From Arenicella xantha (lineage in GTDB: Bacteria > Pseudomonadota > Gammaproteobacteria > Arenicellales > Arenicellaceae), in the NCBI RefSeq assembly GCF_003315245.1, contig NZ_QNRT01000002.1, forward strand, positions 478,206 to 542,205: DNA of 64,000 nucleotides. Reading direction: 5' to 3'. The position numbers were made by a program, and so were the translations under genes. Under the pieces are notes generated by a model that saw only the letters and a list, made by a program, of their open reading frames with translations, searched no databases and was not told the origin of the DNA. How positions within the stretch are numbered: the first letter of the stretch is position 1; every line of letters begins with the position of its first letter. Shown piece after piece: positions 8,181 through 62,336 of the stretch.

Positions 8181-8212
8181 ACCTATTTAACTTTTTCTAT
8201 AAGGAGACAATT

Positions 8213-15953: not shown

Positions 15954-17498
15954 TTATTTAACAGAGTCAGGACAACAACCACACACCGTCATCGGTACGC
16001 CTTTGTTGGTCCACTGCCCGTTCCACTTCGAGAAACCAGCCTGTGGTGCACACGCCGTTGGGCACGCCGCATCAGCTTGCGCTTGATTATTAATAAGAGT
16101 GGCCGACGCTACGTCTTTGCATTGCCCCAAAATCATGTCATCAAAACTATGACTTAGATGCGCAGCAAACGAAGTATTTGGTTGGTTCGCCACATTCGCG
16201 GTGCCGTTGTAGTTGTGACATCCGAAACAATTCAATGCGCCGCCGCCGTTTGCCGCGCTCCCTTGAAAAGTTGTCTCCAATACCACATTCGCTAGCTCTA
16301 ATGAGCCACGCTGATTGGTGGTCGATGCGGGGCTAGACGAACCTGAGCCTTTACTGATATCCGAAACCCACAAAGCCCCATTGAATTCGTAACTTTTCCA
16401 CACATCAAGACTAGCCGGTACGCCTGCGCCAGCCAACACGGTTTGTTGCGCTGCATTCAACTTTTCAATCAACGCAATATTAAGGCCATTACGTGTATCA
16501 ATAGGGTCGCCCTCTACCGTGCCATACGGAAACTCTTGGCAGATATCATTGCCACGCTGACCTGACGGCAAGCTAACCGTCGTAAATGGTTGAGACTCGT
16601 TGAGTTTTTGGCAGGCTGTGGCGTCGACTGCGCAAGCCTCGCTGGTAAAATCGTACGCCGATTGACCTTTGGCCATGTCCGCACAATCAACCGCATTGGC
16701 CTGATGGTCGAGGGTAATCCACACCATTTCTGGATGATTATCCGCCGCCACAACGATATGCCAGCCAATCATGCCAAGTGTGTAATCTACTCCATCAATG
16801 GTCGCATCTGACAACACAAATCCATCAGTGCTCTCATTCGGCTTCATGACTCTCCAAGCCATTTTCATTTCCACCGTTTTAGCTGGAAAGTTTGGCTCTG
16901 ACTGAATCGCTGCATAGTCACACAGATTATGCGACAAACGAATTTCGTAGAAAACCACGTTACCGGCTTGATCATAGATCGCGTGAGCGCCCGCTTGGTC
17001 TGTTCTTTCCGGCAAAATAATAGCGCCAGTATCGTCAATGGTTTTAGCGGTACGAATACTCAAACCCCGATCCTTAGTTGCACCGTCGCACGAATTTGCG
17101 CCTATTTCCAGCACCGGATACTGGGCTTGATCTTGCCAATTAGCCAAACCCGGTTTAGCACTTGGTGAAATCAGATACAGAAACCAGTCTTGTGCGAATT
17201 GGTAGAATTCACAAAATTCAGGAGAACCCGTCACTGGGTTACTGGCAATACTTCCAGGCACCTGCGTCACCGAACGTTGCCACCAGTTGGCTGCCTGACT
17301 AAAATCACAATTTTTGACCTGATCGGCATTCGACAAGCTCGCTGCTACAGCACTCGGCTCAGCCGCCCAAAGGGTCGGGGAATAAGCACTTTGTGCTATC
17401 ACAAAACTGGTTACAAGACACACGGCAATCTGTTTAGCGAGCCACAGACGTGCCCTTTTGCCACGAACATTCATTTTTGCAAGGATAATTTTTCTCAT
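15954..17498 (-). CDS. Secreted hypothetical protein with a single CXXCH (CFGCH) heme-binding-type motif near the C-terminus
   Basis: Start chosen at MRKIILAKMN… (GGAG RBS) with signal peptide …VIAQSAYS. The C-terminal region is Cys-rich (CFGCHN, CPTACAPQ, CGCCPD). Confidence 0.5.
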   Translation of the reverse strand: MRKIILAKMNVRGKRARLWLAKQIAVCLVTSFVIAQSAYSPTLWAAEPSAVAASLSNADQVKNCDFSQAANWWQRSVTQVPGSIASNPVTGSPEFCEFYQFAQDWFLYLISPSAKPGLANWQDQAQYPVLEIGANSCDGATKDRGLSIRTAKTIDDTGAIILPERTDQAGAHAIYDQAGNVVFYEIRLSHNLCDYAAIQSEPNFPAKTVEMKMAWRVMKPNESTDGFVLSDATIDGVDYTLGMIGWHIVVAADNHPEMVWITLDHQANAVDCADMAKGQSAYDFTSEACAVDATACQKLNESQPFTTVSLPSGQRGNDICQEFPYGTVEGDPIDTRNGLNIALIEKLNAAQQTVLAGAGVPASLDVWKSYEFNGALWVSDISKGSGSSSPASTTNQRGSLELANVVLETTFQGSAANGGGALNCFGCHNYNGTANVANQPNTSFAAHLSHSFDDMILGQCKDVASATLINNQAQADAACPTACAPQAGFSKWNGQWTNKGVPMTVCGCCPDSVK

Positions 17499-18029
17499 AG
17501 TACACTCCATATAACGGGGCTTTTGATCTAGCTTTGTATAAAGCTATTCATCTAGCCCCAGATCGTTAATAACTTAACAACAAACTGTGCTGTTAATCAC
17601 TCAATATGAGGGCGTCTAAGCGTCAAAACGGTGATGCGTTGTCGCAACATTCCATGCGGTCCTTTCCTGCCAAGCGCTATACCGGCTGGACACAACAGTT
17701 TAGTTTTTAAAAACCGTAATGCGCCAGTTTCTCCATAAGCTCTACCAAAACTATAGTAAAGCTTAATGTGATATTACGTTGGCGATGCCGTATCGTCCGT
17801 ATGACACAAATTACTTAAATTGCCGACTCCACACCGCCCCCCAGCGCGCGGTAGTCAGTCAAAAACTTGTCTGCTAACCGACAAGCTCCTAATTACCGTA
17901 AACTCTTTTTCTGGACAATGATACTGACGTTAGTCTAATAATGTAACTGCGACAATACTCACCTAATATTCCACTTCGCCAATTAAAATATTGCTGCGCC
18001 CTTTAAATTAGCTCTTTAGGATCCTAAAC

Positions 18030-20069: not shown

Positions 20070-22226
20070 CTAAGGATTGATCTTGAGCGCGGGATCCCCA
20101 AGCAAATGCCAACCAAGTTGCACCGCCGGAAAATCGCTATACTGAGCCAATGCTTGCTTGGCCTGAATCATTGCCTCGCCGATAGTCATACCCTTAAGAT
20201 ACATGCGCTTATTTAGCTCAATACCTAACGCGCGCTCACCGACAGAACTAGTCAATGTCGATGCGCCCATAACACTAGCCGCCCCGTTCTCACCGGACAG
20301 CAGCAACATGTCGGATATCGTGTTGCCTCGAGGATCCACAAAATACGTGTTCCAGCAGCCCCACTGAGTAACCACCGTGGGCTTATTAAGGTTCGTTAGA
20401 TCGGCCACCTGCGATGCTCGCAACATTGGAGGAGTGGTATATGCCCAGCTCTGTTGTGATGAGTGCCCAATGTAAGACACCACCGACACGCCTTGGTTGA
20501 TGAGGCTTAGTAGCTTGTCATGCGCTTGCTGGTGACCATCGATATCAGGATAAACGCGAAAGTCTTCACGTACTCCATCGGACCACTCGCTCGGAATCGC
20601 AGCGATCATGTCGTCGGCATCCTTAGAGAACGACACGCCATTACCAAGGTCGTTCTTATCGGTCACCACCACTGTTCTACCTAAATACCCTGAGCGATTC
20701 TCATAGGCCTTGATCTTGCTCACTACATTGGCCAACTCACTCGGTGTTCTCGCGGAAATACGCGCCACCACCAGTTCGGGTATGCCATCTTCATTGAGGT
20801 CACCGTAGGCAACATCAGACGGAGTTTGAGTAATAGTCAGCGCACCACCTGGCGTAGTCACATAGCGCGTAGGTACTAAACTGACTGAACTCGAAGTGAT
20901 GTTTTTGTAGTCCAGCGTATCGCTGCCAAGTAGCACAACCATCGTCGTGCCCATATGCGTCGCTGCGTGCTTAATGTACGACTGGATCCCTTCCGCGCCA
21001 AACATGTGATGACCGAACTGAGCATAGATATCCGCCACATCGACGACCTTAACGAGGTAGTCTTGTGCGCGTAGTGCAACGAGTTCGTCGAGCGCTGCCC
21101 CTTGCAAACTAGCATGCGTAATAATCAGATATTCAGCGGTACCCGAAGTAATGTCCGTTGGCTCGAGAACCTCTTGCACTGTGGGTTGCGGGTAAGCGGA
21201 TTCACCAATTACAAGATACTCAGCGGCTACACCGCCGGTATTAAACACCACCGAGTCATCTTGATAGCGGATTCCGCGCTTATTTAGTTTTTCGATATGG
21301 CCATCGTCCAAACGCCGATAGACATTAGCCGAAGCTTCACCAAAGTTAGATACTTCGAGTTGCTCGGCATCAACAAAGCCAGCCAGATATCGTTGACCTT
21401 CGGCATCAGCAGAACGTCGATAGCTTACGCTGAATTGGTTCAGCGCAATCCGATCAAACGGCACGCCGGCAATCGCACGATAATTATATTTAAGTGTATT
21501 CGTACCTGCCTGTAAGGGTGCATTGTCAATCGCAAGCTGAGTCGCCGAATTGCCATCAAACTGCTGATCACCAACGACTATGCCATTTACTTCAATTTCA
21601 AAGTGATGATCATTGCCTTCAATCGCAAAATCGAGCAATCCGTACATATCAACCGTAATATCACCTACCGTTGCCGCAAGATTATCAACCTCAAATTGGT
21701 AACTCGGCGTGGCAAAAAAACTAAACGTCTGACCAAAGTGATAAGGGTCAGTAGATGATGGTGAGGAGAAATCATAAGTAACATTACGCTCAATCACCGC
21801 GGTATGTAGATAACTTGAAGCAGACTCCAAGCGTCGATTAACTCGGGTATGAAATGTTTGTATTGACTTACGGTTTGCTAGCGAACGATTAGCCAGCATA
21901 TGTAGCACATACACTTGTTCGTCACGGTACAAACTATCAGCGGGTTCAGCATAAAATTCAATGTAGCCGCCTCCTCCAAACTGACGATTGCGACCACCGC
22001 CTTTACCCGCTGTGGCTAACTGAACCCACTCGCCATTCAGACTCAAACCAAACCGGTCGTGCCTTAAACCGGCCAGATCAGCTCCAGCGTCGACCAACTG
22101 CTCGTAGGTAATGCGATGCATACCAGCTTGTGTAGTACTCAACGTCAATAATTCGAACGCAGCCGCCGTGTTTACAAAACCGCAAACTGCGAGTGCACTA
22201 AAGAACCTAATAAATAAATTTTTCAT
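20070..22226 (-). CDS. Secreted peptidase C25 (gingipain/PorU-like, clan CD) family protein
   Basis: Signal peptide. The catalytic-domain start pattern AEYLIITHASLQGAALDELVALRAQDYLVKVVDVADIY is present. A His-Gly-type motif YIGHS sits ~36 aa before a hydrophobic-block Cys (VVTQWGC), the clan-CD spacing. It lies 25 bp downstream of the giant adhesin and is probably co-transcribed. Confidence 0.5.
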   Translation of the reverse strand: MKNLFIRFFSALAVCGFVNTAAAFELLTLSTTQAGMHRITYEQLVDAGADLAGLRHDRFGLSLNGEWVQLATAGKGGGRNRQFGGGGYIEFYAEPADSLYRDEQVYVLHMLANRSLANRKSIQTFHTRVNRRLESASSYLHTAVIERNVTYDFSSPSSTDPYHFGQTFSFFATPSYQFEVDNLAATVGDITVDMYGLLDFAIEGNDHHFEIEVNGIVVGDQQFDGNSATQLAIDNAPLQAGTNTLKYNYRAIAGVPFDRIALNQFSVSYRRSADAEGQRYLAGFVDAEQLEVSNFGEASANVYRRLDDGHIEKLNKRGIRYQDDSVVFNTGGVAAEYLVIGESAYPQPTVQEVLEPTDITSGTAEYLIITHASLQGAALDELVALRAQDYLVKVVDVADIYAQFGHHMFGAEGIQSYIKHAATHMGTTMVVLLGSDTLDYKNITSSSVSLVPTRYVTTPGGALTITQTPSDVAYGDLNEDGIPELVVARISARTPSELANVVSKIKAYENRSGYLGRTVVVTDKNDLGNGVSFSKDADDMIAAIPSEWSDGVREDFRVYPDIDGHQQAHDKLLSLINQGVSVVSYIGHSSQQSWAYTTPPMLRASQVADLTNLNKPTVVTQWGCWNTYFVDPRGNTISDMLLLSGENGAASVMGASTLTSSVGERALGIELNKRMYLKGMTIGEAMIQAKQALAQYSDFPAVQLGWHLLGDPALKINP

Positions 22227-22250: not shown

Positions 22251-25200
22251 TTAGTTTTTCGATTCAGACTCAATGCCTGTATCGTCCGCTTCTGGCAGAT
22301 CTAGATCGTACTCACCGGATGATCGTAGCTGGTTCAAACGTCTATTAATGTTAGTACGTACTGAGTCAACATCCTCCACCTTCGGGCGAATCCGTGACCA
22401 ATCGAACTCTTCTGGGGTAATCATATTTGCGCCATAAGAAGCATCAGTCTTGAATGGACCATGTGCTGTGACTTCCTCGGCATTTGATATATCCACCAAT
22501 GAAAACCACTTAGCATCGGTATTTACTCGGTGAACGTATTGTCGTGTTTCCATGGCTTCACCAGGGCGACCAACAATCATTTCAGGCGTTAATAGAGTCC
22601 ATTGATCGGCCTCACGAGAGTAGATTTGGAAACCCGCATGACCTACTTCGTTACTGGTTTCCCAACTAATTTCTACCCAATCGCCTTGACGCTCAGCTTT
22701 CAAATAATTGATGGTTACTGGCGTCGTTGCAAACTGTTGCTGATATGCGAAGTCAATGGCTGACTGCGTTGCGCCACCCGATAACGAGTAGCTCGGCGAT
22801 GCGTTGTCACACAGCGCTGCAGTCGGCGAATCACAAACGCGATCTTCTGGCAATGGTTCACCGGCTAGATCTGGGTCACCGGTCTGTCCGTAACCATCAA
22901 CCACAGAGCCACTGGTAACCACTTCGACTCGATAGTTACCGTCCGGCAAATTTGCAAAACTATAATCGCCATTGGCGTCTGTAGTGGTTTCCGAGAGCTT
23001 CACAAAACTACCGCCCTGCTCCACATACAACTCTACAACCACCGCTTGGGCTGGCACATCGGCATTACCACCAGGGCTACCGTCTAATTCCGTCGCTTCT
23101 AGTGTGCCGTTGTCATCAGGTTCGACCAAAGAGATATCCTCTATCACGATGGTGCCGCTAATTTCGTTCGACCCATTGACCCCGAAATCCGCGGTCAAAT
23201 TAGGCGAGTTAGTGGTCAGAGCATAGGTCCAAGGCTTAGCTAGATTGTCACCAACCCCGCCGGTCACCAAGGTTCCGTCACCAATTTCGCTATAACCTAC
23301 CGCATCGAGCACAACAACAATATATTGCCCGCTCGGCAAACTGGTGCAGTAATATTCACCATACTGATTAGTTCGTACCGTTCGAACCAAATTGTCCACA
23401 CCTGGCACTGGCGCATTAGTTACCAGACCTGGATCATTTGGCGTCTCGCTGGAATCACTGTCTAACCAACACTGAATAGTAACCCCCGAAATTCCCGGCT
23501 CATCGTCATCGATAATGCCATCGGCATTAACATCGAACCAAAACCGGTTGCCTATAGAACCTAATTTAACGTCCGACACATACCCTGCGTCTTGCCCAAC
23601 GATATCTGCACCGCCAGCAATAACGATTGGAGTAGGAATCACCTCAAGGGCATTCAAACCGCTTGTCACGCTCGATAAATCCGTGACCTGAATCGTATAG
23701 CTGTCATCTGGCAAACCATTGAAAACGTAGGATCCGTTGGCATTGGTTTTAGTGGTAGCCACCACATTTCCACCGCTATCTAGCAAGTTCAGCGTAACGC
23801 CTTGAAACTCACCGTCGTCAGCGGCGAGATAATCACCATTTGCATTTGAATCGGAGTAAATAGTGCCGGCAATGCTACCTAAATCGCTACCAACTTCAGG
23901 ATTAAAACCGAAGTCAAGGTTGCCAATATTGTTATCCGAATCACTCGCCAAATCGATTGGGAAGTAATTAAATGATCCAACCGACAGATTGGTCGGCTGT
24001 GTATCGTTTAAGTCAACGCCCGCCGCGCCATCAACATCAGCTGACTCATAGCCAACGATTAGCCCGTCAATTAAATCAGCGCCGGTGATACCGGAAATAA
24101 TCCAACTCCCATCAGCGTTGGTGGTAGTGGTTAGAATAATGTCGCCCTGTGGGTTCGCTCCGGTTGCAGTAGATGAGTCATAAATATTGACAGTCACTCC
24201 AGCAATTGGCGCTTCGCCAGCATCGTGAACGCCATCGTTGTCGACATCTACCCACATAAATCCTGACAGAATACCGTCACCGACACTCGGCTCGTAACCT
24301 ACATCCACCTCAGTCACACGTTCACCTTCTGATAATAGAACGGCTTGTGGGTCAACCGTCAAATCTAGGCCTGCCGGAATATCAGCGGGGTTTGCATCCA
24401 CCAGATATTCACCAGCCACCAGGTCAGGGAATATATATTCGCCATTCGCGTCAGTTTGAGTCGAAGCAACAAACTCGGGGTCAGTGGGATCACACGGAGG
24501 GGAAGCAATTGGGCTGGTACACAGATAAACTGTCATACCCGACAAATTCAACTCAGGATCATCAGCCAAACCATTGGTGGTGCCGCCGGCATTTGCCGCG
24601 TCCACAAACAATTCCCCAGAAATTGAGCCGGTCACTTCGTCGTTGATGTAACCGAAGTCAACATCACTTACATCGGCGCCGGCAACACTTACCGACAGCG
24701 CATCTAAACCACTGGTTAAGTCATAGCCAGACAATAGCGATGCCTGGTCTGTTACCGCTACCACATAGTCACCATCGGCTACACCCGAGAAGCTGTAATC
24801 GCCACTCGAATCCGTCACCGTGGTAGCTAGCACTACCGACGGCAACACACCGTCATCATCCGCCAAATCGGGCAAAACCACACTACCGTTGCCGTTCATA
24901 TCGAAGAGACCAGCAATCACCGCCACGCCGTTTACCGTGGCCGTATCTGCCGCGTCTATCAGCGCGTCACCATTGATGTCGATATTACCGTCAATTACGC
25001 TGTAGCCAAGATACAGTCCATCATCAGTGGCGTCGATCAAACCATCACCGTTGATATCAAGCTGGCCGTCAATGACTTCAAGTTCGGCACTTAGCAGTGA
25101 TAGTGTCACGTCCGCAAAGCCAACCTCACCAAGGTCTTCTACACCATCTTTGTCGGCATCCACAAACACCGTGCCAGAAACATCGTTCAGCGTTGCATCA

Positions 25201-28200
25201 ACATAACCAAAGTCCACGTTGCTAGCGCTGCTGCCTAGTTCCAGAGTTAACTCTGTGGCGTTGTTAACAGCACCATCTGGATCTTCGGTTTGCGCACCGC
25301 CAGGGGCGGTCACAAGCACTTGGTAATCACCAGGCACCAGACCATCAAAGGCATAGCTACCATCAGACCCAGAATTTACTACCGACACGGTTGTCTCGTA
25401 ACTTCCGTTGCCATCGGTGTCTTGCAGCAACGTTACCACCGTACCACCAATGCCTAACTCGCCATCAGTTTGATCTGCGCTGGAGTCTGCGTCGCTATAA
25501 ATTACGCCGCTTATCGAACCAGAATTGTTAAAACCGAAACTATCTTGGTTATCGGTGACGCCACCAGCGACGATTACGGCATCAGAGAGTAAATTCTCTG
25601 CTTCGGATGTCGTTCCATTAAAACCGTTTAATTGGCCCTCGGTATCGTTGACCGCTAATAAATAGGTACCATCCTCCAAACCAGTAAACGATACATCGCC
25701 GTTTTCATCAGTCTGCTGAGTCGACACCACATCCGGCTGGCCATCGCCATTTAGGTCATCCGGAATACCATTTGAATCATTGTCTAAGTAAAGATTAATT
25801 GACACGCCAGCAACACCATCTTCGCCAGGGTCTTTAATGCCGTCTTGGTTCGTGTCGATCCACACCGTATCTTCAATCGTATTGAGCGCAGGATTATCAA
25901 AACCAAAGTCCACGTCGGTTACGGTCGACACACCGATATTGAGTGTGATCGGCGAACTGGTATAAGCACCTTCGCTTTGGGCACCGAGCGTTGGCGTGTA
26001 ACCAACTAATTCGGGATCGGTGGCGCTTAAGCGCACAGTGTAGTCGTCGCCAAATGCCACATTGGTAAACAAGTATGACCCATCAGCACTGGTGGTCGTA
26101 GTGTCTAGCAATATGCCTGACGCGTTATACAGCTCAACCACCACACCAGCAATGCCAGCCTCACCAGCATCTTGAATACCATCGCCGTCAGCATCAGCCC
26201 AAACGAGGTTGCCAATTGCGCCAGTATTGGCCGGCGCAACATAACCAAAATCAATACCAGTAACTGCATCGTTGGGTTCCAAAGAAACCGCTTTAGGGTC
26301 AACACCGCCAACACCAAAGGTGTTGATTAAACCCGCTGGTAAGGTAGTGTCATCAACGTTAATCGTATAGTCGCCAACCGGAACATCCGTGAAGGAATAC
26401 GCCCCATTCGCATCGGTAACGGTGGTCGCTGCCACGCCGCCTAAGTCATCCAATAACTCAACAACAATACCAGACAGCTCGGCTTCTTCGAGATCGTTGA
26501 TCCCATCTCGGTCTTGATCTAACCAAACACTGCCGCCAACACTCGATGTTTGAGCATCAACAAAGTTGTTATTCGCGTCGACTTCGTCAACCGCCACCGA
26601 CACAGGAATCTGATTGTCATTGGCATTGCCGTTGCCCGCTGCATCGGTGTCTACTGATTGCGTATCACTCACCGATGAATAACCCGCAGGGTCGACCTCG
26701 ACAATCACGTAATCGCCAACTATGACGTCTTCAAATAGAAAGTCTCCGTTAATATCCGTCACAGCCGTATAAGCTAAAACTCCGTCGCTAGGATCACCGT
26801 CACCATTTGGGTCGGTGTACAACAGTATACTTACCCCAGCTAGATCAACATCACCAACACCATCGAAGTTCTGATCGGCTGATACATTGCCAGACACATC
26901 TCCCGTGGCAAGTTGGTCGGTCACTGAACCCTCAATCGGTGTGGGCAATTCTACCGACGTGGTCGACGCCGTGTTTTCTAGCTCCGTAATTCCGGCGGCA
27001 ATAGGGTCATCAACAATTACATCAAAAGTGACTACCAATGTCTCCCCTGGCGGCAAGTCTATATCATCGCCTGCGGTCACCATATTTGGTGGCGCACTCG
27101 CAGCATCGTTAATTGTTCCTAAGTACTCGTAGTTAACAGTGAAATCAAGCGAGCCTGAGGTGTTCGTGCCGCCAGACAAAGTGTATGTATCTCGCCATTC
27201 GAACGAATAGTTACCTACCGCGTTACCTGTCTGCGCATTTGGGCCAAAAGTTACGTTCCATGGACCTTGGTTATTGCCTCCAAAGCTTCCAGGGCCAAAG
27301 GCATATGTCGTGCCATTTGCTATCGACACATCAAGCCCTATGTCACTGCGCCAATCAGTTGTGCCGCCAGCACTTGCGAAGGCGAACGACGTTATAGAGC
27401 TGTCTGCTGGCAAATCAGGTGTTGTGTTGTAAGCTTGGGTCAGCGTGGATGCAAAGTTTTGATTCGCCGCGAATATATGATTAAAACTATCCGAAACGAG
27501 CCCAGGATAAGTTTTTTGCGCAGTTGCGTTCACATACGTCACACCGGGTGGCAATAAGTCGCTTAATGTAACGTCGTTGGCAGTGCCTGAACCGGTGTTG
27601 GTGACGGTAATGGTGTAGGTAAGCGTATCGCCAGGGCTCACAGCGGCGCCGGCCGCACTCGATACTTTAGTGATCTCGAGCTCGGGTTCATCGACCGCAC
27701 AAAAAGTAAATCCAGCCAACCTTATCGCATGACCATCACTTTCACCGTGCGGTGCTGGTTCGCCGCCACTGGCTTCCGCTGCCGCATCATCTGGCCCATT
27801 TGAGTAACTCACACTTAACGAATCAATCAAATTTGGCGCACTAATCGTAATCTGCCCTGCTGGATCAGTTGTCGCTACACCACCGGACACGCCTGTGACA
27901 TAGTTTGCCGAGGATGTCTGCCCTACCACTGTCACATTGCTGCCAGCGTTTGAAATTGTAATCGGCACATTCGAGCCACTTAGGCTTGCGTTGACTTGCA
28001 CCACGTCTTGGAACGATGACACAGGAAGCGTATTGCTTGGCGCGTTGTAACCAACATCGTCTATATCGGCAACCTGATAATCCACAACATAACCTGGTTC
28101 TGAAAACGAAAATTCAAAGCCGACCACATCGGTCGAGTCGCTTGAAGCCATGCCAACCGTTAAAAAGCCGGTACCAAAAGCCCCATTTGTTTCGGTAGTA

Positions 28201-28601
28201 ATATCCAAACCTGGCGGTGGATCAATGTCACAACTGCCACCGGCCGCTATGACATTAGCCGGACAAGTAAAATTTGAATCAAAATTTCGACCATCAGGAT
28301 CGATTAAGGTTGCAGTCACGACAACACTTTGCGGATTACCAAGCCCGTCCGTATAGTTGACCGTATAGTTTTGGCTCGCGCCATCCGTATTATTGGTGTC
28401 TAACCACTCATTGCCAGTACCCACGCCGGTCGACCAAGAAAAAGTCGCCGGAGAACTATTAGCCGGACATGTTTGTGCATACCCAGAGGTCGGGAATAGT
28501 AAAAATATTCCGATCGTGGCTAATAGCCCAGAGTGTTTTGCATCCAGCGAACCGAAAATACACCCAACCAAATCGCGAAACTTACGATTGAATTTCATCA
28601 A
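22251..28601 (-). CDS. Giant (2116 aa) secreted adhesin-like protein with DUF11 and many SdrD-B/Cna-B-type Ca-binding repeats
   Basis: Signal peptide. DUF11-like segment [34 protein letters not shown]. More than 10 repeats of the (F/W)xDx(N/D)xDGxxDxxExGxxGVxVxL type, giving extensive intragenic DNA repeats. Confidence 0.8.
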
Positions 28602-38042: not shown

Positions 38043-39530
38043 ATGGTTCATTTCTCACGTCAATTGTGTCGGTCCTTGTCTTTGTTTTTCACGACTTTGG
38101 TTATTCATGGAATAGTCCTTTCAGCGTCTGCCGCCGAAGTTCCTGAGTATCAGGACATATTTCCTGAGCTGTCGTTAAATGGCAGCATCAACAGAATCCA
38201 AATGACGGAAAGCGGAAAACATCTGGTGGCATTGGTGGAGTCTGCCACTACCGGACAGAATGAACTATTTAGTATTCGCTTAGATAACAGAGTAGCTACC
38301 AAGCTGCATGTACCCTTAAACGGAGGTAACCAGGTTTCAGGTTTCAAAATAAGCCCGAATGGGAATCTGGTAGTGTATCGGACTCAATTTCTTACAGACT
38401 CGTCTGATCAACTATTTAGCGTCTCAATCAATGGTGGTGAGTCCGTCGTACTTAATCCCTTGTTGCTGAGCAATCGCTCTGTGAGGGATTTCTTGATTTC
38501 ACCCAACAGCCAATTTGTTGTTTTTCAAGGTGATATCGATGTCGACGAGAGAAGGGAAGTTTACAGCGTCCCCATTCAAGGAGGTACAGTAATTAAGCTG
38601 AACTCAAATCTTATAAACGGACAGTCTTTATTTGGCCTTGAGATAACGCCGAACAGTGATCGAGTTATCTACAGGAAGACAGACCCGAGCTTTAAGACTG
38701 ATCTTGTCAGTGTGCCAATCGGCGGCGGCTCAGAGGTGCGTTTGCATCCAACACGAACGAACGGCGCATCTGCAAAAAGTTTCGGCACGTATTCCTCGGA
38801 TGGTCGTTCAGTTTTATTGGGGTTTGGCTATGGACTTTTTCAGAGTGAAGATGTTTTTATAGCCACAATCGATGGAAGCACACCGCCACTGCATGTGGTT
38901 AAGCGGTCAACTACCGATTTCAAGATATCTGAAGCGCACTTTACTTTGGATGATCGATTCATCATTTTTCTCGGAAAAAATGAAAGCGCTACATCAAATA
39001 ATCAACAGCACTTATTTAGATCCGACCTTGCTGAGGACGCTGCGCTGGTGCGATTCACACCGATATTACCCAACGCCTTAGGTATTCGCCAACCTTTTCT
39101 TCACCCAGACGGTATCCACGTTGTCTATCGAGCAACACCTAGCACCTCGAATATATTTGAAGTATTTCAGATACCAATTGCCGGTGGCGAGCCAGAGTTA
39201 TTAAGTGGCGTCAGCTCTGCTAATTATACAACCAATGACTTTCTGGTAAGCAGGGATGGTAAACATATAATGTTCAACAAAATTCTATTACCTAGTTTCG
39301 TCCAACAACTATTTGTGACTTCGTTTAATGATAAAAAAACCAGCGCAATTAGCGACACCTTCTTCACCGAATCGGAAAGTACCATTGGCTATGACATAGG
39401 GTCGTCGATCTCAAACTCACTCTTCCTATCGCTAAATCGTGATGCCGTGTTTGTTCCTAAAGTCGAAAATGATGAGCTTTGTGTGCCTATTAAAGTTAAA
39501 AATGGTCGTGTCGCAGTAGTCTGTTTATAG
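38043..39530 (+). CDS. Secreted TolB-like PD40 beta-propeller repeat protein ending in ELCVPIKVKNGRVAVVCL
   Basis: Signal peptide MVHFSRQLCRSLSLFFTTLVIHGIVLSASAA (RBS ggaagg). Repeated blades of the form (F/Y)SxxxxGGxxxxL…(I/F)SP(N/D)…V(V/I)(Y/F). The C-terminal motif is shared with the protein at 58336..60066. Confidence 0.6.
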   Translation: MVHFSRQLCRSLSLFFTTLVIHGIVLSASAAEVPEYQDIFPELSLNGSINRIQMTESGKHLVALVESATTGQNELFSIRLDNRVATKLHVPLNGGNQVSGFKISPNGNLVVYRTQFLTDSSDQLFSVSINGGESVVLNPLLLSNRSVRDFLISPNSQFVVFQGDIDVDERREVYSVPIQGGTVIKLNSNLINGQSLFGLEITPNSDRVIYRKTDPSFKTDLVSVPIGGGSEVRLHPTRTNGASAKSFGTYSSDGRSVLLGFGYGLFQSEDVFIATIDGSTPPLHVVKRSTTDFKISEAHFTLDDRFIIFLGKNESATSNNQQHLFRSDLAEDAALVRFTPILPNALGIRQPFLHPDGIHVVYRATPSTSNIFEVFQIPIAGGEPELLSGVSSANYTTNDFLVSRDGKHIMFNKILLPSFVQQLFVTSFNDKKTSAISDTFFTESESTIGYDIGSSISNSLFLSLNRDAVFVPKVENDELCVPIKVKNGRVAVVCL

Positions 39531-46452: not shown

Positions 46453-48417
46453 TTGGATTTAAAAATGGGGCTTAGCTTGAAAAAACAAATCATTATTTGC
46501 GCTTTATTATTAAGTATAGGGTGCTCGAATTATTCTTTTGCCAGCGTATTTGATGAGGCTGGGTCGAACCAAGAAAACATGGTGACTAGTGAGCCCACAG
46601 CAAATCACACTACAAACAAGCGCGCCAAGTTGAAGCCTTTCAACACGCTTAAGAAAAACAACGATGTTCAATTTAAGCCAAGCCTGCGCAAATTTGGAAA
46701 ATTTCTTGCCAAAAGCCTGTCTAATCAAGAAGAAACGAGTGCTAAAACTGATGGTGCAAACACACCGAATACGAGCGCCTTCGTACATCGCAATCAGCAC
46801 GACCAAATCCAAGTTTATATTGACTTCTTTAACCTCGACGAGGCCGTTGAGAAGGCTATCAGAAATGCCGGCCTCACTATTGAACTAGTTAGTTCTGATT
46901 TAAACCGAGTACAGGGCTGGGCCAATGAACAAACTCTTCTAGCGCTAGCTGAAGATAGCAATGTCTTGAGAATTTCAGCGCCCAATTATGCGTTTCCAAA
47001 ATCGGGTGCCGCAGTAACTCAAGGAGACCAAATCCTAGGTAGTGACCTCCTGCGACAAATTGGTCATACGGGAAAAGGAGTACGTGTCGGGATTCTTTCT
47101 GATGGGGCGAAGAACTGGACGCAAGCACGAGATTCTGGTGACCTACCTGCCAAGATTACGCTCTATGGAAATTGTGATTCAGGCAGTACGAGCGCTGATC
47201 TTTGTCGAGCCGGTGGAGGCACCTGCAATGAAGGAACAGCTATGGCCGAGATAGTACATGACATCGCGCCCGATGCTGACATAGCGGTAGCATCAGTACG
47301 CACATCGCTGGAATTCATAGATAAGATAAACACTCTAATTAACGACTTTGGTGCCGATATCATCGTGGATGATCTTGGCTTTTATGGAGAACCATCGTTT
47401 TATGACGGTGACATCGCAACCGCCGTGGCGAATGCATCAAAGCGAGTGCTGTTCGTGTCCGCAGCAGGAAACGACGGGTATGGCCACTATCTGGCTAGTT
47501 ACCGAGGCTCTCATGAACCAATTTGGCTTGATAATCCAAATTATAGTAACACTTCCGTTCACACGTTTGTTGATCCGTTGAGAGGTAACACTTACTACCC
47601 TGCTGAAGAGGATCATTATCACGGGTTTATCGTCACAGCCAATAGCGCGTCAACCGTCATCTTACAGTGGGATGGTCGACTTGGCGGATTTGGTAGCCGA
47701 AATGCTCTTCGACTCAGAATACATGATAGCCAAGGATATGTTGTTTACGCGAGTGACGGCACTCGAACAGCTTCCCCCGAGGATGCAATCGAGGGCGTCT
47801 GCATTCCAAATCCATCTAACGATGATAAAGTTTATTTTGTCACCGTCGAGCTAACTAACGGTCCAGTTTATCAATTTCATTTTAGACTCTTTTTTCTAGG
47901 TCAGGGCGCCATCGAGTACCCTATGGCCGAGTCAAGCATATTTGGTCACCCAAGTGTTGAGCGAGTCTTGGCTGTCGGAACCATAAATTCAAGTCAAGTC
48001 AACACTGGAGAGGTCGCGTTTTACTCCTCTCAAGGCCCGGCCCTTATACACACAACCTCCAGAAATTCAGTGACTGGAGGTGCCCAGTTTGAATCACAAC
48101 AGAAAAGAAGAAAACCGGACTTAGTTGCGCTAGATCAAGTTTCCGTATCGGGGGCCGGTGGGTTCCCGTCGCTATTTTATGGCACCTCTGCTGCTGCACC
48201 TCACGTTGCAGGAATTGCCGCACAGCTAATGAGTGTCACAAATCTCGTGAAAGCTGACGATGTCCGCAGAGCACTTATAAACGGTGCACAAGATATAGGT
48301 AAAAAAGGGTTTGATTTCACGTCTGGCTACGGATTAGTAGACGCTGAGCAGGCTCTCGACAAGCTGCAATATGGGAACCCACTCCCTGCAATATTTTTAC
48401 TTCTGGATAAGCGGTGA
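46453..48417 (+). CDS. Secreted subtilisin-like serine protease (peptidase S8), lipoprotein-like signal, ending in NPLPAIFLLLDKR
   Basis: Classical Ser motif YGTSAAAPHVAGIAAQLMS and Asp-region GKGVRVGILSDG. N-terminal signal with LLSIGCS. Confidence 0.8.
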   Translation: MDLKMGLSLKKQIIICALLLSIGCSNYSFASVFDEAGSNQENMVTSEPTANHTTNKRAKLKPFNTLKKNNDVQFKPSLRKFGKFLAKSLSNQEETSAKTDGANTPNTSAFVHRNQHDQIQVYIDFFNLDEAVEKAIRNAGLTIELVSSDLNRVQGWANEQTLLALAEDSNVLRISAPNYAFPKSGAAVTQGDQILGSDLLRQIGHTGKGVRVGILSDGAKNWTQARDSGDLPAKITLYGNCDSGSTSADLCRAGGGTCNEGTAMAEIVHDIAPDADIAVASVRTSLEFIDKINTLINDFGADIIVDDLGFYGEPSFYDGDIATAVANASKRVLFVSAAGNDGYGHYLASYRGSHEPIWLDNPNYSNTSVHTFVDPLRGNTYYPAEEDHYHGFIVTANSASTVILQWDGRLGGFGSRNALRLRIHDSQGYVVYASDGTRTASPEDAIEGVCIPNPSNDDKVYFVTVELTNGPVYQFHFRLFFLGQGAIEYPMAESSIFGHPSVERVLAVGTINSSQVNTGEVAFYSSQGPALIHTTSRNSVTGGAQFESQQKRRKPDLVALDQVSVSGAGGFPSLFYGTSAAAPHVAGIAAQLMSVTNLVKADDVRRALINGAQDIGKKGFDFTSGYGLVDAEQALDKLQYGNPLPAIFLLLDKR

Positions 48418-50779: not shown

Positions 50780-52348
50780 CTAAATCTCGAATGCGCCGAC
50801 ATCGCATTCGCCATCGAGGTTGATGACGGCGATTTTTTTGCTAGCAGTGACTATCGGAACAAACATACCGGCGATATCACGCACTTCACCGCGTTGATCG
50901 GTCGACGGGCATTGCGATGGGTTTGCAGTGCCGATCGCTGGGCTAGTTAGGCTTAGTGCATGTGTGTCAGTTGAACCACCGTTGTTTGCCAGGGGCAACA
51001 AGCCTGGGTCGCCAAAACGACTAGCCCCGCAGGAAGCATCTTCAATTATGGTAGCGTAGTCTACGGTAATGGTACTGTCGATATTGTCGCAGTCACCATC
51101 ACCAAGAGAATTAGCAATAATACTGTTGCTCAGGTTTATGGTAGCCGAACTTGCTGCAACTCCGCCACCGTATAGGTCAGCTGAATTATCCGAAACAGTG
51201 CTATTAATTAGGGTGATGCTACCGGAGTTAGCGTTAATTCCGCCGCCGCGATAATTCGATAAATTACTCGATACGGTACTGTTAACCAAGCTTACGTTGG
51301 CATAGTTACCAGCAAAAACCCCTCCGCCCGCATAATAAGCCGAATTACTCGACACGCTACTGTTGCTTATGCTCATACGGGTATAGTTACGGGTGAAAAT
51401 ACCGCCGCCGTTGTAGGCGTGATTACTCAATATATTGCTACCACTCAAGCTTGCGCTAGCGTAATCGCTTATCTGAATTCCACCGCCGGAACTAGCCGAA
51501 TTGCCAGACACGGTGCTGTTAATTAGGCTCACGCTGGCTGAGTTGACAGCATGAATTCCGCCGCCTCGAATTGCAAAATTAGCAGACACAATACCACTGT
51601 CGATATTCACGCTGGCAGAATTATGGGCGTAAATTCCACCGCCGTTGTCCGCTAAGTTACTCGATATGACACTGCTATTTAAACTTACGCTGGCTGAGTT
51701 AAGGTAAATTCCACCACCAAGACCTGCGACGTTTTCAGACACTGCACTGTTGTTTAAACTTAAGCTGGTGGACACCGTACTAGCATAGATTCCGCCACCG
51801 CCAAGATTTGCCGAATTACCAAACACTCTGCTGTCGCTTAGGCTTAGCTTGGCCGAGTTGATCGCGACCACGCCACCGCCAATGCTTGCGGATCCGCCAG
51901 TTATATTCAGGTTAAGTAAGCTTACGGTCGCTGAATTAATATAAAGAACACGCGACGCGTTATTTGCGTCAATGGTAATTCCGCCAGTGATGCTGCTGGC
52001 ATTAATCTCAATATTCTTACTTTCAAGCTCAAGCGCGCCGGCCAACAGAGTGATCGTGTTTGATGCCAAACTGTTTGCAAACGTAATCGTGTCGGTGCTC
52101 GTGGGGATACCCCCTGATACGCAGCCGTTGCCGAGACTCGAAGGATTGTTGGCCGACGCAATAGCCTCACGCAAACTGCAGCCAGTGACTGAATTGGTAT
52201 CTAAATTAGAATTAACCGAAATTGTGTTCGCCTGCACCGCACTGTGTGCCAAGCCGAGGCCGATAATGCTCGCGCGAATAGCTAGGTTTAATGGCGTCAA
52301 GCTGATCGCGGTACTTGCACTAGGCTTTTCGATACGATTCGATTTCAT
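50780..52348 (-). CDS. CSLREA-domain parallel beta-helix protein with tandem Pmp-like (polymorphic membrane protein) repeats
   Basis: N-terminal GCSLREAIASAN. About 15 tandem copies of a ~20-22-aa unit (NSASVSLxNSxVSxNxAxxGGGIxx). The C-terminal CDVGAFEI motif is present. Confidence 0.7.
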   Translation of the reverse strand: MKSNRIEKPSASTAISLTPLNLAIRASIIGLGLAHSAVQANTISVNSNLDTNSVTGCSLREAIASANNPSSLGNGCVSGGIPTSTDTITFANSLASNTITLLAGALELESKNIEINASSITGGITIDANNASRVLYINSATVSLLNLNITGGSASIGGGVVAINSAKLSLSDSRVFGNSANLGGGGIYASTVSTSLSLNNSAVSENVAGLGGGIYLNSASVSLNSSVISSNLADNGGGIYAHNSASVNIDSGIVSANFAIRGGGIHAVNSASVSLINSTVSGNSASSGGGIQISDYASASLSGSNILSNHAYNGGGIFTRNYTRMSISNSSVSSNSAYYAGGGVFAGNYANVSLVNSTVSSNLSNYRGGGINANSGSITLINSTVSDNSADLYGGGVAASSATINLSNSIIANSLGDGDCDNIDSTITVDYATIIEDASCGASRFGDPGLLPLANNGGSTDTHALSLTSPAIGTANPSQCPSTDQRGEVRDIAGMFVPIVTASKKIAVINLDGECDVGAFEI

Positions 52349-58335: not shown

Positions 58336-60066
58336 TTACAAACAAACCAGAGCGCCTTTGCCGTTACTCGGGAGTATCGGAAAACAAAGCTCATCGCGGT
58401 ACTCTACCGCGCCGATATCGCATGCCCTGCCATCAAAACGCGAAGAACGTAATTGGTCGTCTCTAAACGGCGGTGGTGGCAGCGCTGCCGATTGGATTAC
58501 CGTCTCTGTACCACGACAGCCTTGTATGTAAACTGTTTGTGGCCCACTTGGCGACGAGATTGTAAAGGTATCTATAAAAGCAACGGCAGCGTCAATCGCT
58601 GGGCTCCCACTGGCCAATGCGTGATGCGCACGACTTGTTCCGCTCTGCTGGAGCGGCTTAATAATTCCATTTAGCGCCGTTGGTCGATCACCATCCACAG
58701 TGAGAATTAGATTATCGTTCTGCGAAAAATTATAAGCAATAGGTGGCGAGTCAGGCGCAGCTTTGTAAGTTGCTTGATGGGACGAAAAAGTAAATGCTTC
58801 CGATGAGCCAAACACCGAATGGCTAGGGATAAAGTTAGTTTTATTGTCATAGATCAAAAAAATATTCTTGCCCGACGACAGAGATGCATCTGCACCAAGG
58901 TTGCCGGCTATAATGGAATTCGTGATAAAAAATTTGCTATTCAATTCATTTGCCGCATGGGTAAAGGCGACATTGACCGCGGCGAAATCACCCAAGTTAT
59001 TCGCAATAGTAGAATTCGTTATCAAAAGGTCAACTTGCCCAAGCGCACCCGATATAGCACTCCCCGATTTGGCTCTATTACCGGAAAGGGTTGAGTCGAG
59101 GATCGACACATTTAAATTGCGGCTGATTCGAAGGGCTCCACCGGTCGACGTGCTGATTGATCCTTCTTTGTAACAAGTATTGTTTGCGAAAGCCGATCGC
59201 ATAATAACAACTCTCGGTCTAAGATCAGACGTGACAACGCCAGTTTTTCCACTAGCGATATTAATGGCGCCGCCGGAGCACCCCCTATTTAGACTTGAAT
59301 CAGTCTCAGCGACGTTGGCTTGAAACACGCTATCGATAATTGTTACATTGCCAAACAAGTTGCTGATTGTAATCGCGCCTCCAGACAGTAATCGAGATGC
59401 GCTATTATCACTGCTGTTTACACGAGCTCCGTTACTAATAAATCTCGTGTTTTCAATGGTGACATCTGCGCCATCCACACCGTTGAAAAAGATTGCCCCA
59501 CCTACTGCCCCGCTATTAGAGTCCACACTTGTCGCTGCATTCTGTAGAAAGTCAGAATTACGGATAGTCAAACTGCCACCAATCACACTGACCGCCCCTC
59601 CGCGCGGTGTAGTAGTCATACCTGGAAGCGAGTGGTTTCCTTTAGAGAAAATCAAATTCTCTAAAGTGAGAGAGGCTTGCAGCACACTAATAAACCTGAA
59701 TGGTTGACTGGCAGAATTAGCTCGCGTAATCAAAGCCTTGCCACCCACGCCACGAATCGTGAGTGGATCCACATTGGTATATTCTATAAATGCATTCCGC
59801 GCATCATGCGCCTGAGTGACGTGTGTTTCAATTGAGCTCGGCACCAATATCAAATTTGAAAAAGGTTGAGTGGCACTACTAGTTGCCAACACGCAACCAC
59901 CGACACTACTTTCTACATTCATCGATTGCATTGCTTCAGACAAACTGCAACCACCGGCATCCGTAGCCGAGTCTACGGTGGTTTCCCATACCGACGGTGC
60001 TGATCGCGCCAGCGCACCGTAAGAGCAACACAACACCGATACCAATATTAATGCTAGACCTTTCAT
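58336..60066 (-). CDS. Secreted CSLREA-domain parallel beta-helix protein ending in ACDIGAVEY…ELCFPILPSNGKGALVCL
   Basis: Signal peptide. N-terminal GGCSLSEAMQSMN (CSLREA-like). Beta-helix repeats of the form N…G. The C-terminal CDIGAVE motif resembles that of 50780..52348; the final 18 aa match the tail of 38043..39530. Confidence 0.6.
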   Translation of the reverse strand: MKGLALILVSVLCCSYGALARSAPSVWETTVDSATDAGGCSLSEAMQSMNVESSVGGCVLATSSATQPFSNLILVPSSIETHVTQAHDARNAFIEYTNVDPLTIRGVGGKALITRANSASQPFRFISVLQASLTLENLIFSKGNHSLPGMTTTPRGGAVSVIGGSLTIRNSDFLQNAATSVDSNSGAVGGAIFFNGVDGADVTIENTRFISNGARVNSSDNSASRLLSGGAITISNLFGNVTIIDSVFQANVAETDSSLNRGCSGGAINIASGKTGVVTSDLRPRVVIMRSAFANNTCYKEGSISTSTGGALRISRNLNVSILDSTLSGNRAKSGSAISGALGQVDLLITNSTIANNLGDFAAVNVAFTHAANELNSKFFITNSIIAGNLGADASLSSGKNIFLIYDNKTNFIPSHSVFGSSEAFTFSSHQATYKAAPDSPPIAYNFSQNDNLILTVDGDRPTALNGIIKPLQQSGTSRAHHALASGSPAIDAAVAFIDTFTISSPSGPQTVYIQGCRGTETVIQSAALPPPPFRDDQLRSSRFDGRACDIGAVEYRDELCFPILPSNGKGALVCL

Positions 60067-60383: not shown

Positions 60384-60767
60384 CTATTTCCAAAAATACT
60401 TCTGAGTCGCTAAACTACTTACTTGATACTTTTCAATTACCCGTCTGGGCTCGAACACATTGAATTCGGCATGCCAAAAGTACCATTGCTTATGACCAAT
60501 AACTACGGTGCCGTGCTCTCTATACAGCTCGCACAGCGACACCGGAATCTTGAACCCGTGCGTATCTTCAAGTAACTCGTTCAACTCCTCACGCGAGAAT
60601 TCCTTCACCCACTTCGGTAAATAACACTCTCCAACATTTCGCTCATAGCCCTCTCCCAGATGGGTACTGTAGTCAGTCAGAAAACGTTCGAAACAGACCA
60701 AGTAATCCGTAAGCGAAACATTGCCTGGTAGAATCAATTGATCAAAATACTGAGTCGAACTAGTCAT
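60384..60767 (-). CDS. Hypothetical cytoplasmic protein (127 aa)
   Basis: Trp/Tyr/Glu-rich with no motifs I can name. Weak call. Confidence 0.3.
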   Translation of the reverse strand: MTSSTQYFDQLILPGNVSLTDYLVCFERFLTDYSTHLGEGYERNVGECYLPKWVKEFSREELNELLEDTHGFKIPVSLCELYREHGTVVIGHKQWYFWHAEFNVFEPRRVIEKYQVSSLATQKYFWK

Positions 60768-60951: not shown

Positions 60952-61560
60952 TTACTCAGGCAAACTATTTAAATAGTCGATCAACCGAGTAAAGTCATCA
61001 GCTGACGATACCGCGGCAAGGATGACTTGGTAGCGACCATTAACAACGAAGCTCGGCACGCTTTGAACCTTGCGGTTAATCCCCTCCTTATTCATCTGAC
61101 GCAGTTTAGTATCCGCTGAGAAAGATCTAAATAACTGTTCAACTTTTAGGCGCTCATAGCCAATATCGACAAAATAGCCGATGATCTCCTCATCACTATC
61201 GAATAAGTCTTGCTGCAGGTGAATTCGCTCAAAAATCGCATTTTTATATTGTTCGGCATGGAGCAAGGTCATCAATACAAATACTTTCTGAGACTGTTTG
61301 GCTTTTCTACCGCCATAAGGCATGTGCACACGACGCAAATTGATCTCTGGCATTGCGGCTTGCATTGACTCTACTAATGGTTCCATGGCGTAGCAACCGG
61401 GGCAGCTGAACGAGAAAAACTCGACCACCTCTGGTGATTCTGAAAGTGTAGAGTGCTCAACAACAGAATAATGAGTGCCTTCTACAAAGCTTTGTGCCTG
61501 AGCCGATTGAACGACAAACAGTGACAGGCATAACGCTAAAGCTATAAGTATGGCTCTCAT
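60952..61560 (-). CDS. dsbA: DsbA-family periplasmic thiol:disulfide oxidoreductase (active site CPGC)
   Basis: Signal peptide MRAILIALALCLSLFVVQSAQA. FFSFSCPGCYAMEP thioredoxin-fold active site. DsbA-like length. Confidence 0.7.
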   Translation of the reverse strand: MRAILIALALCLSLFVVQSAQAQSFVEGTHYSVVEHSTLSESPEVVEFFSFSCPGCYAMEPLVESMQAAMPEINLRRVHMPYGGRKAKQSQKVFVLMTLLHAEQYKNAIFERIHLQQDLFDSDEEIIGYFVDIGYERLKVEQLFRSFSADTKLRQMNKEGINRKVQSVPSFVVNGRYQVILAAVSSADDFTRLIDYLNSLPE

Positions 61561-61595
61561 CGTAAAAACACGATTGCTAATATAAAAACAGCTGA

Positions 61596-62336
61596 TCATA
61601 GCGGCGCTCCGTCTAAATCATTTAGTCGTCGATTTGCGAGTTCGATCAGGCTCATAAGACGATCCGGTGTCATAAAACCAGGTTTAAGCTCGCCATTCGG
61701 TAACACGACGGTCGGCGTCGATGTAATGCTCAGCGCTCGTGCTAATGACATTTGCTGATTCAGCTGCGTAGCTTCGCAATTCTGAGGCGCGGGTATCTGT
61801 CCTTGCATTGCATCGGTAATCGCCGCCGCAGGCGTATCAGAACATAGAGCATTGAGTGTCTTGGTATAGGATGCGGAGTCAACTCCGGCCCTTGGAAGCA
61901 TCACGTAGTTCACGGTAATGCCACGTTGATTCATATCGTCCATATAATTATGTAGCTTGCGGCAATAGGGGCAGTCGATGTCGGTGAACACCGTGATCTG
62001 ATGTTTTTGGCCATTGCTACTTGGGTAACGAATGAATAAGGACTCTGGCTGCTCACTCAGCAACGTTTTGCGCGCCAGGGCTTCTTTCTCGGCAACTAGA
62101 TCAACCTGACGTTGGGTATCAATTACTGGCCCAGCAAACACATACCGTCCGTCATGAGTTGTATAGAAGTTAGAGGTACCGACTACCACCGATTTAAGTT
62201 GTGCATCGTGGTCACTGACTTGAATCGATTGATCGCCAAACACCGCTTGCAAACGTTCTTCCAAACCTTCAGCTCGCACTTCGCTGATCGCCCCACAGAC
62301 CATGGCGACATAAAGAGTTAATATGATGTTTTTCAC
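61596..62336 (-). CDS. dsbC: DsbC/DsbG-family disulfide isomerase (active site CPYC)
   Basis: Signal peptide, N-terminal dimerisation region and TDIDCPYCRKLH active site. There is a 4-bp overlap between its start and the dsbA stop. Confidence 0.75.
   Translation of the reverse strand: MKNIILTLYVAMVCGAISEVRAEGLEERLQAVFGDQSIQVSDHDAQLKSVVVGTSNFYTTHDGRYVFAGPVIDTQRQVDLVAEKEALARKTLLSEQPESLFIRYPSSNGQKHQITVFTDIDCPYCRKLHNYMDDMNQRGITVNYVMLPRAGVDSASYTKTLNALCSDTPAAAITDAMQGQIPAPQNCEATQLNQQMSLARALSITSTPTVVLPNGELKPGFMTPDRLMSLIELANRRLNDLDGAPL

Follow-up and report, generated by a model that had tools for sequence, protein, structure and literature searches.

Two exported proteins with a common C-terminal tail

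We analysed a stretch of 64,000 nucleotides of the Arenicella xantha genome (assembly GCF_003315245.1, contig NZ_QNRT01000002.1, positions 478,206 to 542,205; hereafter the window), which encodes two exported proteins that end in nearly the same short peptide. The open reading frame (ORF) of the first, a beta-propeller protein (carrier 1, 38043(37959)..39530 on the forward strand), terminates in ...VENDELCVPIKVKNGRVAVVCL-stop, and that of the second, a beta-helix protein (carrier 2, 58336..60066 on the reverse strand), in ...EYRDELCFPILPSNGKGALVCL-stop. Both tails read D-E-L-C-x-P-I-x3-N-G-x2-A-x-V-C-L-stop, a tag of 19 residues with two cysteines, and they align without gaps at 12 identical residues of the 19. 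The N-termini of both proteins resemble signal peptides, and their remaining sequences are unrelated. A preliminary description of this DNA had reported a common tail on two unrelated secreted proteins, which is borne out, and had located it in carrier 1 at 39474..39530. These positions encode ELC...VCL and the stop codon, and the counterpart in carrier 2 is 58336..58392. The spacing of five or six residues given there between PI and NG was wrong, as three residues separate them in both tails.

At the DNA level, the two tails are identical at 36 of 60 nucleotides and use different codons for 7 of the 12 identical residues, indicating that conservation acts on the peptide and does not reflect a recent duplication of DNA. 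In carrier 2 the tag comes directly after the ...CDIGAVEY that closes a choice-of-anchor Q domain (36.7 bits against model NF041518, above its cutoff of 25), and starts 4 residues past the end of the domain match. Coordinates of these and other features are collected in Table 1.

Distribution of the tag

A degenerate DNA pattern encoding [DE][LF]CxP[h]x3NGx4[h]C[h]-stop matched the window at these two tails and nowhere else, compared with 0.00 matches expected in shuffled sequences. We scanned both strands of 185,579 species with this pattern, at one genome per species and 596 Gb in total, for which we calculate from its information content (approximately 40 bits) that about 1 match should arise by chance. 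The scan returned 24 matches, all of which contained the full motif, including the positions that the pattern leaves free, directly before a stop codon. Thirteen were in records named Arenicella, one was in Candidatus Poriferihabitaceae (also Arenicellales) and ten were in gammaproteobacterial or Pseudomonadota metagenome-assembled genomes (MAGs), with no match in any named taxon outside the Arenicellales among the species scanned. The tag is restricted to this gammaproteobacterial order, to which all the named records belong. A relaxed scan added one further adjacent copy and no internal copies, and a metagenome scan identified 7 further copies.

At the protein level, we built a profile from four tails, two from the window and two from homologs of carrier 1, and searched 1.84 billion representative proteins. 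We identified 64 matches at E<=1e-3, of which 63 terminate at the last residue of the protein. The sole internal match (P0052) proved to be a hairpin of a GAF domain that lacks the second cysteine, and was rejected as a false positive. A hidden Markov model (HMM) of 86 unique tails scored the tagged ORFs at 33-50 bits, against 14 for the next best of 5,382 six-frame ORFs.

Beyond the pair in the window, we found the tag on about ninety exported and otherwise unrelated proteins. Individual genomes can contain several copies: by the strict pattern, two MAGs have no fewer than 4 each, and the 64-kb window has 2. Tandem paralogs are often both tagged. Since the window contains 2 matches against 0.00 in shuffles, and the genome scan 24 against about 1, similarity of the tails by chance is excluded. 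The presence of the motif on other proteins, which the preliminary description had set as a test of its significance, is evident from the genome, metagenome and profile matches alike.

Conservation and predicted structure

We counted residues over 92 unique tails, numbered from the C-terminus, and obtained the consensus [DE]-[ED]-L-C-[VFLI]-P-I-[KR]-[AT]-x-N-[GN]-x-[VIL]-A-[VL]-[IV]-C-L-COOH. The cysteines at positions -16 and -2, which lie 13 residues apart, are invariant (92/92 each), as is the proline at -14 (92/92, with one P-to-S variant met later). Position -9 is Asn in 91 of the 92 tails, and position -1 is Leu in 88 and L, I or V in all. Conservation is less strict at -13 (Ile, 79/92), -12 (Lys or Arg, 80/92), -5 (Ala, 76/92) and -8 (Gly 70, Asn 12, Ser 5), while -19 and -18 are nearly always Asp or Glu. 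The tag is preceded by an acidic, proline-rich linker, with Glu, Pro and Asp enriched at positions -20 to -31.

We found no conservation across carriers upstream of approximately position -21, so that the conserved region comprises 19-21 residues. This bears on a further explanation, in which the tails resemble each other by chance, or are what is left of a larger homologous C-terminal domain inherited in the ordinary way, an outcome that the preliminary description had also proposed to check. We regard the probability of this explanation as negligible: we found no point in its favour, whereas the tails have no conserved neighbourhood upstream, and the matches lie at the very end of the protein in both the genome scan and all but one case of the profile search.

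AlphaFold2 placed two strands at the end of full-length carrier 1 (residues 480-484 and 490-494), with C480 opposite C494, at moderate confidence. When the hairpin was predicted again with an alignment of 63 tails, a 5+5 beta-hairpin in the same register was obtained, with a predicted local distance difference test (pLDDT) score of 92-95. In this register, one face of the hairpin would be entirely hydrophobic (L-17, V/F-15, I-13, A-5, I/V-3 and L-1), and the other would present the disulfide, the proline, the lysine and two valines, next to a basic loop. The model suggests that the two cysteines form a disulfide, and a disulfide loop, as suggested in the preliminary description, is supported both by the invariance of the two residues and by their opposed placement in the predicted hairpin. 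In three Cys-less variants both cysteines are missing together, as would be expected of a disulfide pair.

We identified possible Cys-less relatives of the hairpin in proteins with a choice-of-anchor Q domain. A second CSLREA/choice-of-anchor-Q protein of the window (ORF 50780..52348) contains a 17-residue hairpin-like sequence, MFVPIVTASKKIAVINL, between its DQRG..R and CDVGAFE motifs and 11 residues before the C-terminus. The Q-domain match in this protein extends over 75 residues for 56 model positions, indicating that the sequence is an insertion in the domain. A homolog in locus L002 (7044..8000 (-)) has the insert FMVPIKTANSNIAVVDL at the equivalent place, which matches the tail HMM at 14.3 bits (E 0.008); the Cys-less insert is possibly akin to the tag, although this kinship is uncertain. 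In addition, three choice-of-anchor-Q proteins of GCA_041156785.1 (locus L035) end in a Cys-less tail, FFV[VI]PLxNGK[AS]VIF[DE]L-COOH, which matches no NCBIfam model. These three adjoin two tandem DUF5122 proteins that have the tag with its cysteines.

Such variants bear on the possibility that the hairpin is not a sorting signal at all, but a self-contained binding or anchoring module kept on the mature protein, such as a lipopolysaccharide (LPS)- or receptor-binding mini-dockerin or an oligomerisation strand. We consider this rather unlikely. It would account for the internal and terminal Cys-less variants within mature domains, and for the predicted amphipathic form of the hairpin, with one hydrophobic face and a basic loop, an architecture that resembles the cationic, disulfide-bonded beta-hairpin peptides that bind LPS or Lpt proteins. 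However, the strict location at the extreme C-terminus and the terminal Leu (88/92) fit recognition of a free C-terminus better, and the net charge of the tag is modest and is offset by the acidic linker. A binding module also overlaps with the sorting or surface-retention tag that we favour below, as retention at the surface is common to both.

Proteins that carry the tag

We identified 30 Pfam families among 51 representative carriers. These included propeller proteins (DUF5122/delta-60, PD40-like, Kelch and FG-GAP); proteases, among them a reprolysin-like metalloprotease and S8 subtilases of two or more unrelated groups; and other enzymes, namely GSDH/PQQ glucose/sorbosone dehydrogenases, a GDSL-like lipase and a lactonase-propeller fused to a di-haem peroxidase. 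The remaining carriers were TSP3 and Calx-beta repeat proteins, a cytochrome-c-like protein and beta-helix proteins of the CSLREA/choice-of-anchor-Q type. Most of the complete carriers have a signal peptide, and the apparent exceptions are mostly fragments, proteins with mis-called starts, or cases in which our crude heuristic overlooked the signal peptide.

Several of these families bear recognised sorting signals at the equivalent position in other lineages. For example, the best named relative of one TSP3 carrier is the MYXO-CTERM protein MtsC, and that of a related beta-helix protein is rhombotarget A. In other lineages, the homologs of carrier 1 have another short tail in this place, ...YDYQxVYLPLLxx. 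In six of them (P0008, P0010, P0012, P0013, P0014 and P0016) this takes the form ...[YF]D[YFR][QH]x[VIL][YF]LP[LYQ]... followed by 3 residues, as in YDYQVVYLPLLRR, and may be another short C-terminal tag.

The range of carriers is pertinent to an explanation in which the hairpin is a bioactive peptide, antimicrobial-like or signalling, that is cut from its carriers and released. The predicted ring of 16 residues closed by a disulfide, with its basic loop, would suit such a peptide, and several carriers are themselves proteases. Dozens of large and enzymatically diverse carriers would nonetheless be an odd set of precursors, the sequence is strongly conserved where a released peptide might have diversified, and no dedicated maturation or immunity genes lie nearby in nine loci annotated with Pfam. 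We therefore consider a released peptide very unlikely.

Comparison with known sorting signals

No model of NCBIfam 20.0 or Pfam-A matched the tail, whether in full proteins or in the tails alone (E<=10); a profile search of PDB sequences recovered no relative, and the motif was not described in the literature that we searched. Curated libraries do not contain the tag. It differs in kind from the tripartite signals that it most calls to mind, the C-terminal domains PEP-CTERM, GlyGly-CTERM and MYXO-CTERM of Gram-negative bacteria, with their respective enzymes exosortase, rhombosortase and myxosortase, together with JDVT-CTERM and similar domains. Like the tag, these domains are short regions of homology at the extreme C-terminus, restricted to particular lineages, found on unrelated signal-peptide proteins (apparently several per genome in the case of the tag), and placed after choice-of-anchor, delta-60, TSP3 and subtilase passengers. 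MYXO-CTERM, which is cut by CPBP intramembrane proteases (doi 10.1101/2023.06.07.544157), also has an invariant cysteine, where the tag instead has two that would staple the predicted hairpin. The secretion system of type II (T2SS) is the outer-membrane route demonstrated for cargo with GlyGly-CTERM and MYXO-CTERM signals (Haft 2023, doi 10.1101/2023.06.07.544157).

Unlike the tripartite domains, the tag has neither a transmembrane helix nor an Arg/Lys cluster, and ends 7 residues past the turn. Within the last 25 residues, uncharged stretches reach at most 5-8 residues in each of the 92 tails, and none of the tails (0/92) has a Lys or Arg among its final five residues. The curated HMMs for sorting signals in NCBIfam and Pfam match none of the tags. 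Rhomboid, exosortase and CPBP genes are absent from the window, and none is listed among the Pfam-annotated genes of nine loci; nor does the window contain a sortase gene. For these reasons it is highly improbable that the tail is a classical tripartite signal, processed by a sortase or by an exosortase-, rhombosortase- or myxosortase-type protease within the membrane, even though it follows the same logic of a C-terminal signal on many cargo proteins with signal peptides. The preliminary description had proposed a sorting or processing signal, possibly read by a sortase-like or rhombosortase-like enzyme. Its first element agrees with what we found, a modular terminal tag on many unrelated signal-peptide proteins, whereas processing of the sortase or rhombosortase type is unlikely.

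Other known signals are further removed. The C-terminal domain (CTD) of the type IX secretion system (T9SS) of Bacteroidota, which is processed by PorU, is likewise a folded signal without a transmembrane segment, and so readable after Sec export; it is, however, a beta-sandwich of 70-100 residues from a different phylum, and the Por_Secre_tail models do not match the tag. Compared with LPXTG/sortase signals, the tag lacks an LPXTG-like pentapeptide, a transmembrane segment and a basic tail. The mismatch of the tail to LPXTG, PEP-CTERM, GlyGly-CTERM and the T9SS CTD that the preliminary description had noted is thus confirmed by model searches, by the transmembrane and basic-residue content, and by length. 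The outer-membrane beta-signal has an aromatic end, unlike the L, I or V of the tag, and the carriers are soluble propellers, beta-helices and enzymes.

The closest likeness in form is to arenicin, tachyplesin and thanatin, which are disulfide-stapled cationic beta-hairpin peptides, and to the C-terminal disulfide loop of type IV pilins. The tag as predicted has in common with these a ring of about 15 residues, a single disulfide, a two-stranded hairpin with a basic turn, and exposure at the C-terminus; those examples are free peptides or belong to one protein family, and have no sequence similarity to it. The choice-of-anchor Q family (NF041518) is named for its alternative C-terminal anchors, and is a passenger of the tag and not the tag itself: the domain is present in carrier 2 and missing from most other carriers.

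We also rejected two lipid modifications, on general grounds. CaaX-type prenylation does not fit, as the cysteine is penultimate where the fourth position from the end would be needed, and as these are exported proteins. The sequence D-E-L-C does not fit the lipobox L-[AS]-[GA]-C, and is C-terminal. We found no evidence for the lipidation site that the preliminary description had considered.

Search for a partner gene

To find genes that accompany the tag, we clustered 212 ORFs from 25 loci all against all, and considered nine further contexts of up to 22 kb annotated with Pfam. The only recurring family in the 25 loci was that of the short-chain dehydrogenases (SDRs), which is uninformative, and the nine further contexts had no family in common.

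In the window, DsbA-like and DsbC-like genes (60952..61599 (-) and 61596..62336 (-), overlapping by 4 nucleotides) lie on the same strand as carrier 2 and just upstream of a 127-aa ORF (60384..60767) and the carrier 2 gene. Among the other annotated loci, only L040 has a DsbC-like gene, 3.4 kb from its tag. As the adjacency is not repeated in the other annotated loci, we treat it as coincidence or housekeeping.

A second candidate is the secreted Peptidase_C25 protein of the window (Table 1). In NCBIfam it is best matched, along almost the entire protein, by the T9SS sortase PorU (NF033707; E 5.6e-40, 137 bits against a cutoff of 420), and its His/Cys dyad aligns with that of Kgp. PorU-like C25 is an unusual family for a gammaproteobacterium. 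The gene lies 25 nucleotides downstream of a 2116-aa SdrD_B/DUF11/SpaA repeat adhesin (22251..28601 (-)), and at locus L036 C25 module and adhesin are fused in single proteins of 2,500-2,800 aa. C25 modules also lie 0.1-0.8 kb from tagged S8 subtilases at loci L013 and L036.

These observations raise the possibility that a PorU-like C25 peptidase reads the tag as a signal for cleavage and attachment. In a reaction of the T9SS kind, but outside Bacteroidota, the enzyme would cut off the hairpin at the surface and join the C-terminus thus exposed to a surface polymer. The similarity to PorU, the aligned dyad, and the location of C25 modules beside two tagged subtilases that are not orthologous are in its favour. 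Nevertheless, the PorU match falls far under its cutoff, the C25 module is tied to a giant repeat adhesin and may serve only that protein, and the 19-residue tag bears no likeness in size to the T9SS beta-sandwich. C25 genes are nearby in only 2 of about 40 loci; they are 6-8 kb long and multi-copy, such that by our own estimate about 0.6 coincidences are expected and two are not significant. We consider the PorU-like peptidase a weak candidate for the partner, of low probability.

The window also encodes a small protein with no family assignment (688..1068 (+)), whose N-terminus, ARRKQLLMIAGVAGG, may be of the twin-arginine-like type; it recurs at loci L013 (6785..7318 (-)) and L036 (9478..9984 (+)). 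In these two other genomes its gene immediately follows large surface proteins or C25 modules and precedes the tagged subtilases. One of the two matches has 52% identity to the protein of the window (E 7e-16), and the other is weaker (E 1e-3).

A proposed lineage-restricted tag for sorting or surface retention

We suggest, on balance, that the tail serves as a tag for sorting or for retention at the surface: a hairpin stapled by a disulfide, confined to one lineage and read after export by a partner that the carriers share. This reading draws on sequence conservation and structural models, and we hold it with only modest confidence. We infer a sorting-signal function from the architecture of the tag, which together with its distribution supports it, and likewise infer the formation of the disulfide, a localisation function, a single partner and the route of secretion.

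In the mechanism that we envisage, the precursor would be exported by Sec, and its two invariant cysteines oxidised in the periplasm, presumably by DsbA. The disulfide would staple an antiparallel amphipathic hairpin of 5+5 residues around an x-x-N-G-x loop, with one hydrophobic face, a basic loop region and the acidic linker before it. A single shared partner, in the periplasm or the outer membrane, could then recognise this folded handle together with the free -V-C-L terminus, and would bring the cargo to the cell surface, hold it there, or both. Transit across the outer membrane would most plausibly occur via the T2SS, by analogy with GlyGly-CTERM and MYXO-CTERM cargo. As the tag has no membrane-spanning segment, an exosortase, rhombosortase, myxosortase or similar intramembrane protease would not be expected to recognise it.

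Three observations weigh against a dedicated sorting tag. The approximately 40 tagged loci yielded no partner, having no neighbouring family in common beyond the ubiquitous SDRs. The Cys-less insert of the Q domain and the Cys-less terminal variant indicate that a hairpin of this kind can be an ordinary part of a mature protein. Finally, hairpins of the form VPI...turn...IxV occur in unrelated folds, such as the GAF domain.

Short C-terminal tags on unrelated exported proteins have repeatedly led to the discovery of sorting enzymes, including sortase, exosortase, archaeosortase, rhombosortase and myxosortase. To our knowledge, each of the tags behind those enzymes includes a helix that crosses the membrane and offers the cleavage site to a protease located there. 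The tag described here has no such helix; the prediction is of a very small hairpin folded by oxidation. Its reader must therefore work differently, and the chance that the tag points to a new mechanism of sorting is substantial. A more specific proposal, which we put forward tentatively as a possibility somewhat short of even, is that it represents a new class of Gram-negative sorting signal: a 19-residue, disulfide-stapled hairpin without a transmembrane segment, read in folded form by dedicated machinery (for example a C25 sortase of the PorU kind acting outside Bacteroidota, or a specialised T2SS adaptor) that would bring dozens of enzymes and adhesins to the Arenicellales cell surface.

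The near-invariant 19-residue motif makes the tag easy to recognise, and it marks a cargo set of proteases, dehydrogenases, lipases, propellers and adhesins. Arenicellales are abundant associates of marine sediments, seaweeds and sponges, and the tag gives annotators a handle on the surface and secreted proteome of this widespread and poorly studied marine order. As it is present in Arenicella xantha, a culturable type species, the question is directly testable.

Other features of the window

Table 1. Coordinates of the tags, their carriers and related features, in the window unless another locus is named.
Feature	Locus	Coordinates	Strand	Description
Tag copy 1	window	39471..39530	+	DELCVPIKVKNGRVAVVCL and stop; 44.5 bits against the 86-tail HMM
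Tag copy 2	window	58336..58395	-	DELCFPILPSNGKGALVCL and stop; 36.4 bits against the 86-tail HMM
Carrier 1 (P0003)	window	38043..39530	+	495-aa exported PD40-like beta-propeller; Arenicella xantha hypothetical / WD40 repeat protein
Approximate Sec signal peptide, carrier 1	window	38043..38135	+	MVHFSRQLCRSLSLFFTTLVIHGIVLSASAA; sequence reading; N-terminal helix 2-26 in the model
Carrier 2 (P0001)	window	58336..60066	-	576-aa exported CSLREA / choice-of-anchor-Q beta-helix protein of Arenicella xantha
Approximate Sec signal peptide, carrier 2	window	60007..60066	-	MKGLALILVSVLCCSYGALA; sequence reading
Secreted Peptidase_C25 protein	window	20070..22226	-	718 aa; Pfam E 2e-59
Cys-less hairpin-like insert	window	50816..50866	-	MFVPIVTASKKIAVINL; inside the choice-of-anchor-Q domain of ORF 50780..52348
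Cys-less-tail Q protein	L035	13119..13391	+	
Cys-less-tail Q protein	L035	15703..17184	-	
Cys-less-tail Q protein	L035	17285..18796	-	

We additionally identified a C-terminal motif, PLPAI[LF]LLLD, that is common to a DUF7933/TSP3 protein fragment (1..675 (+)) and a 654-aa subtilase-like protein ending in ...NPLPAIFLLLDKR (46453..48417 (+)). Both proteins are exported, the motif is too short to span a membrane, and it was seen in no other locus fetched; it may be a second orphan tag in the A. xantha genome. Elsewhere in the window, a 1794-aa DUF3686 ('ATPase involved in DNA repair') / DUF7902 / AAA protein (10480..15864 (+)) is preceded by two membrane-associated ORFs without family assignment (7497..10075 (+)), in an arrangement that resembles a defence or repair locus. 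An exported protein of 518 aa (15954..17510 (-)) has a C-terminal MVL mannan-binding repeat and the terminus ...CGCCPDSVK.

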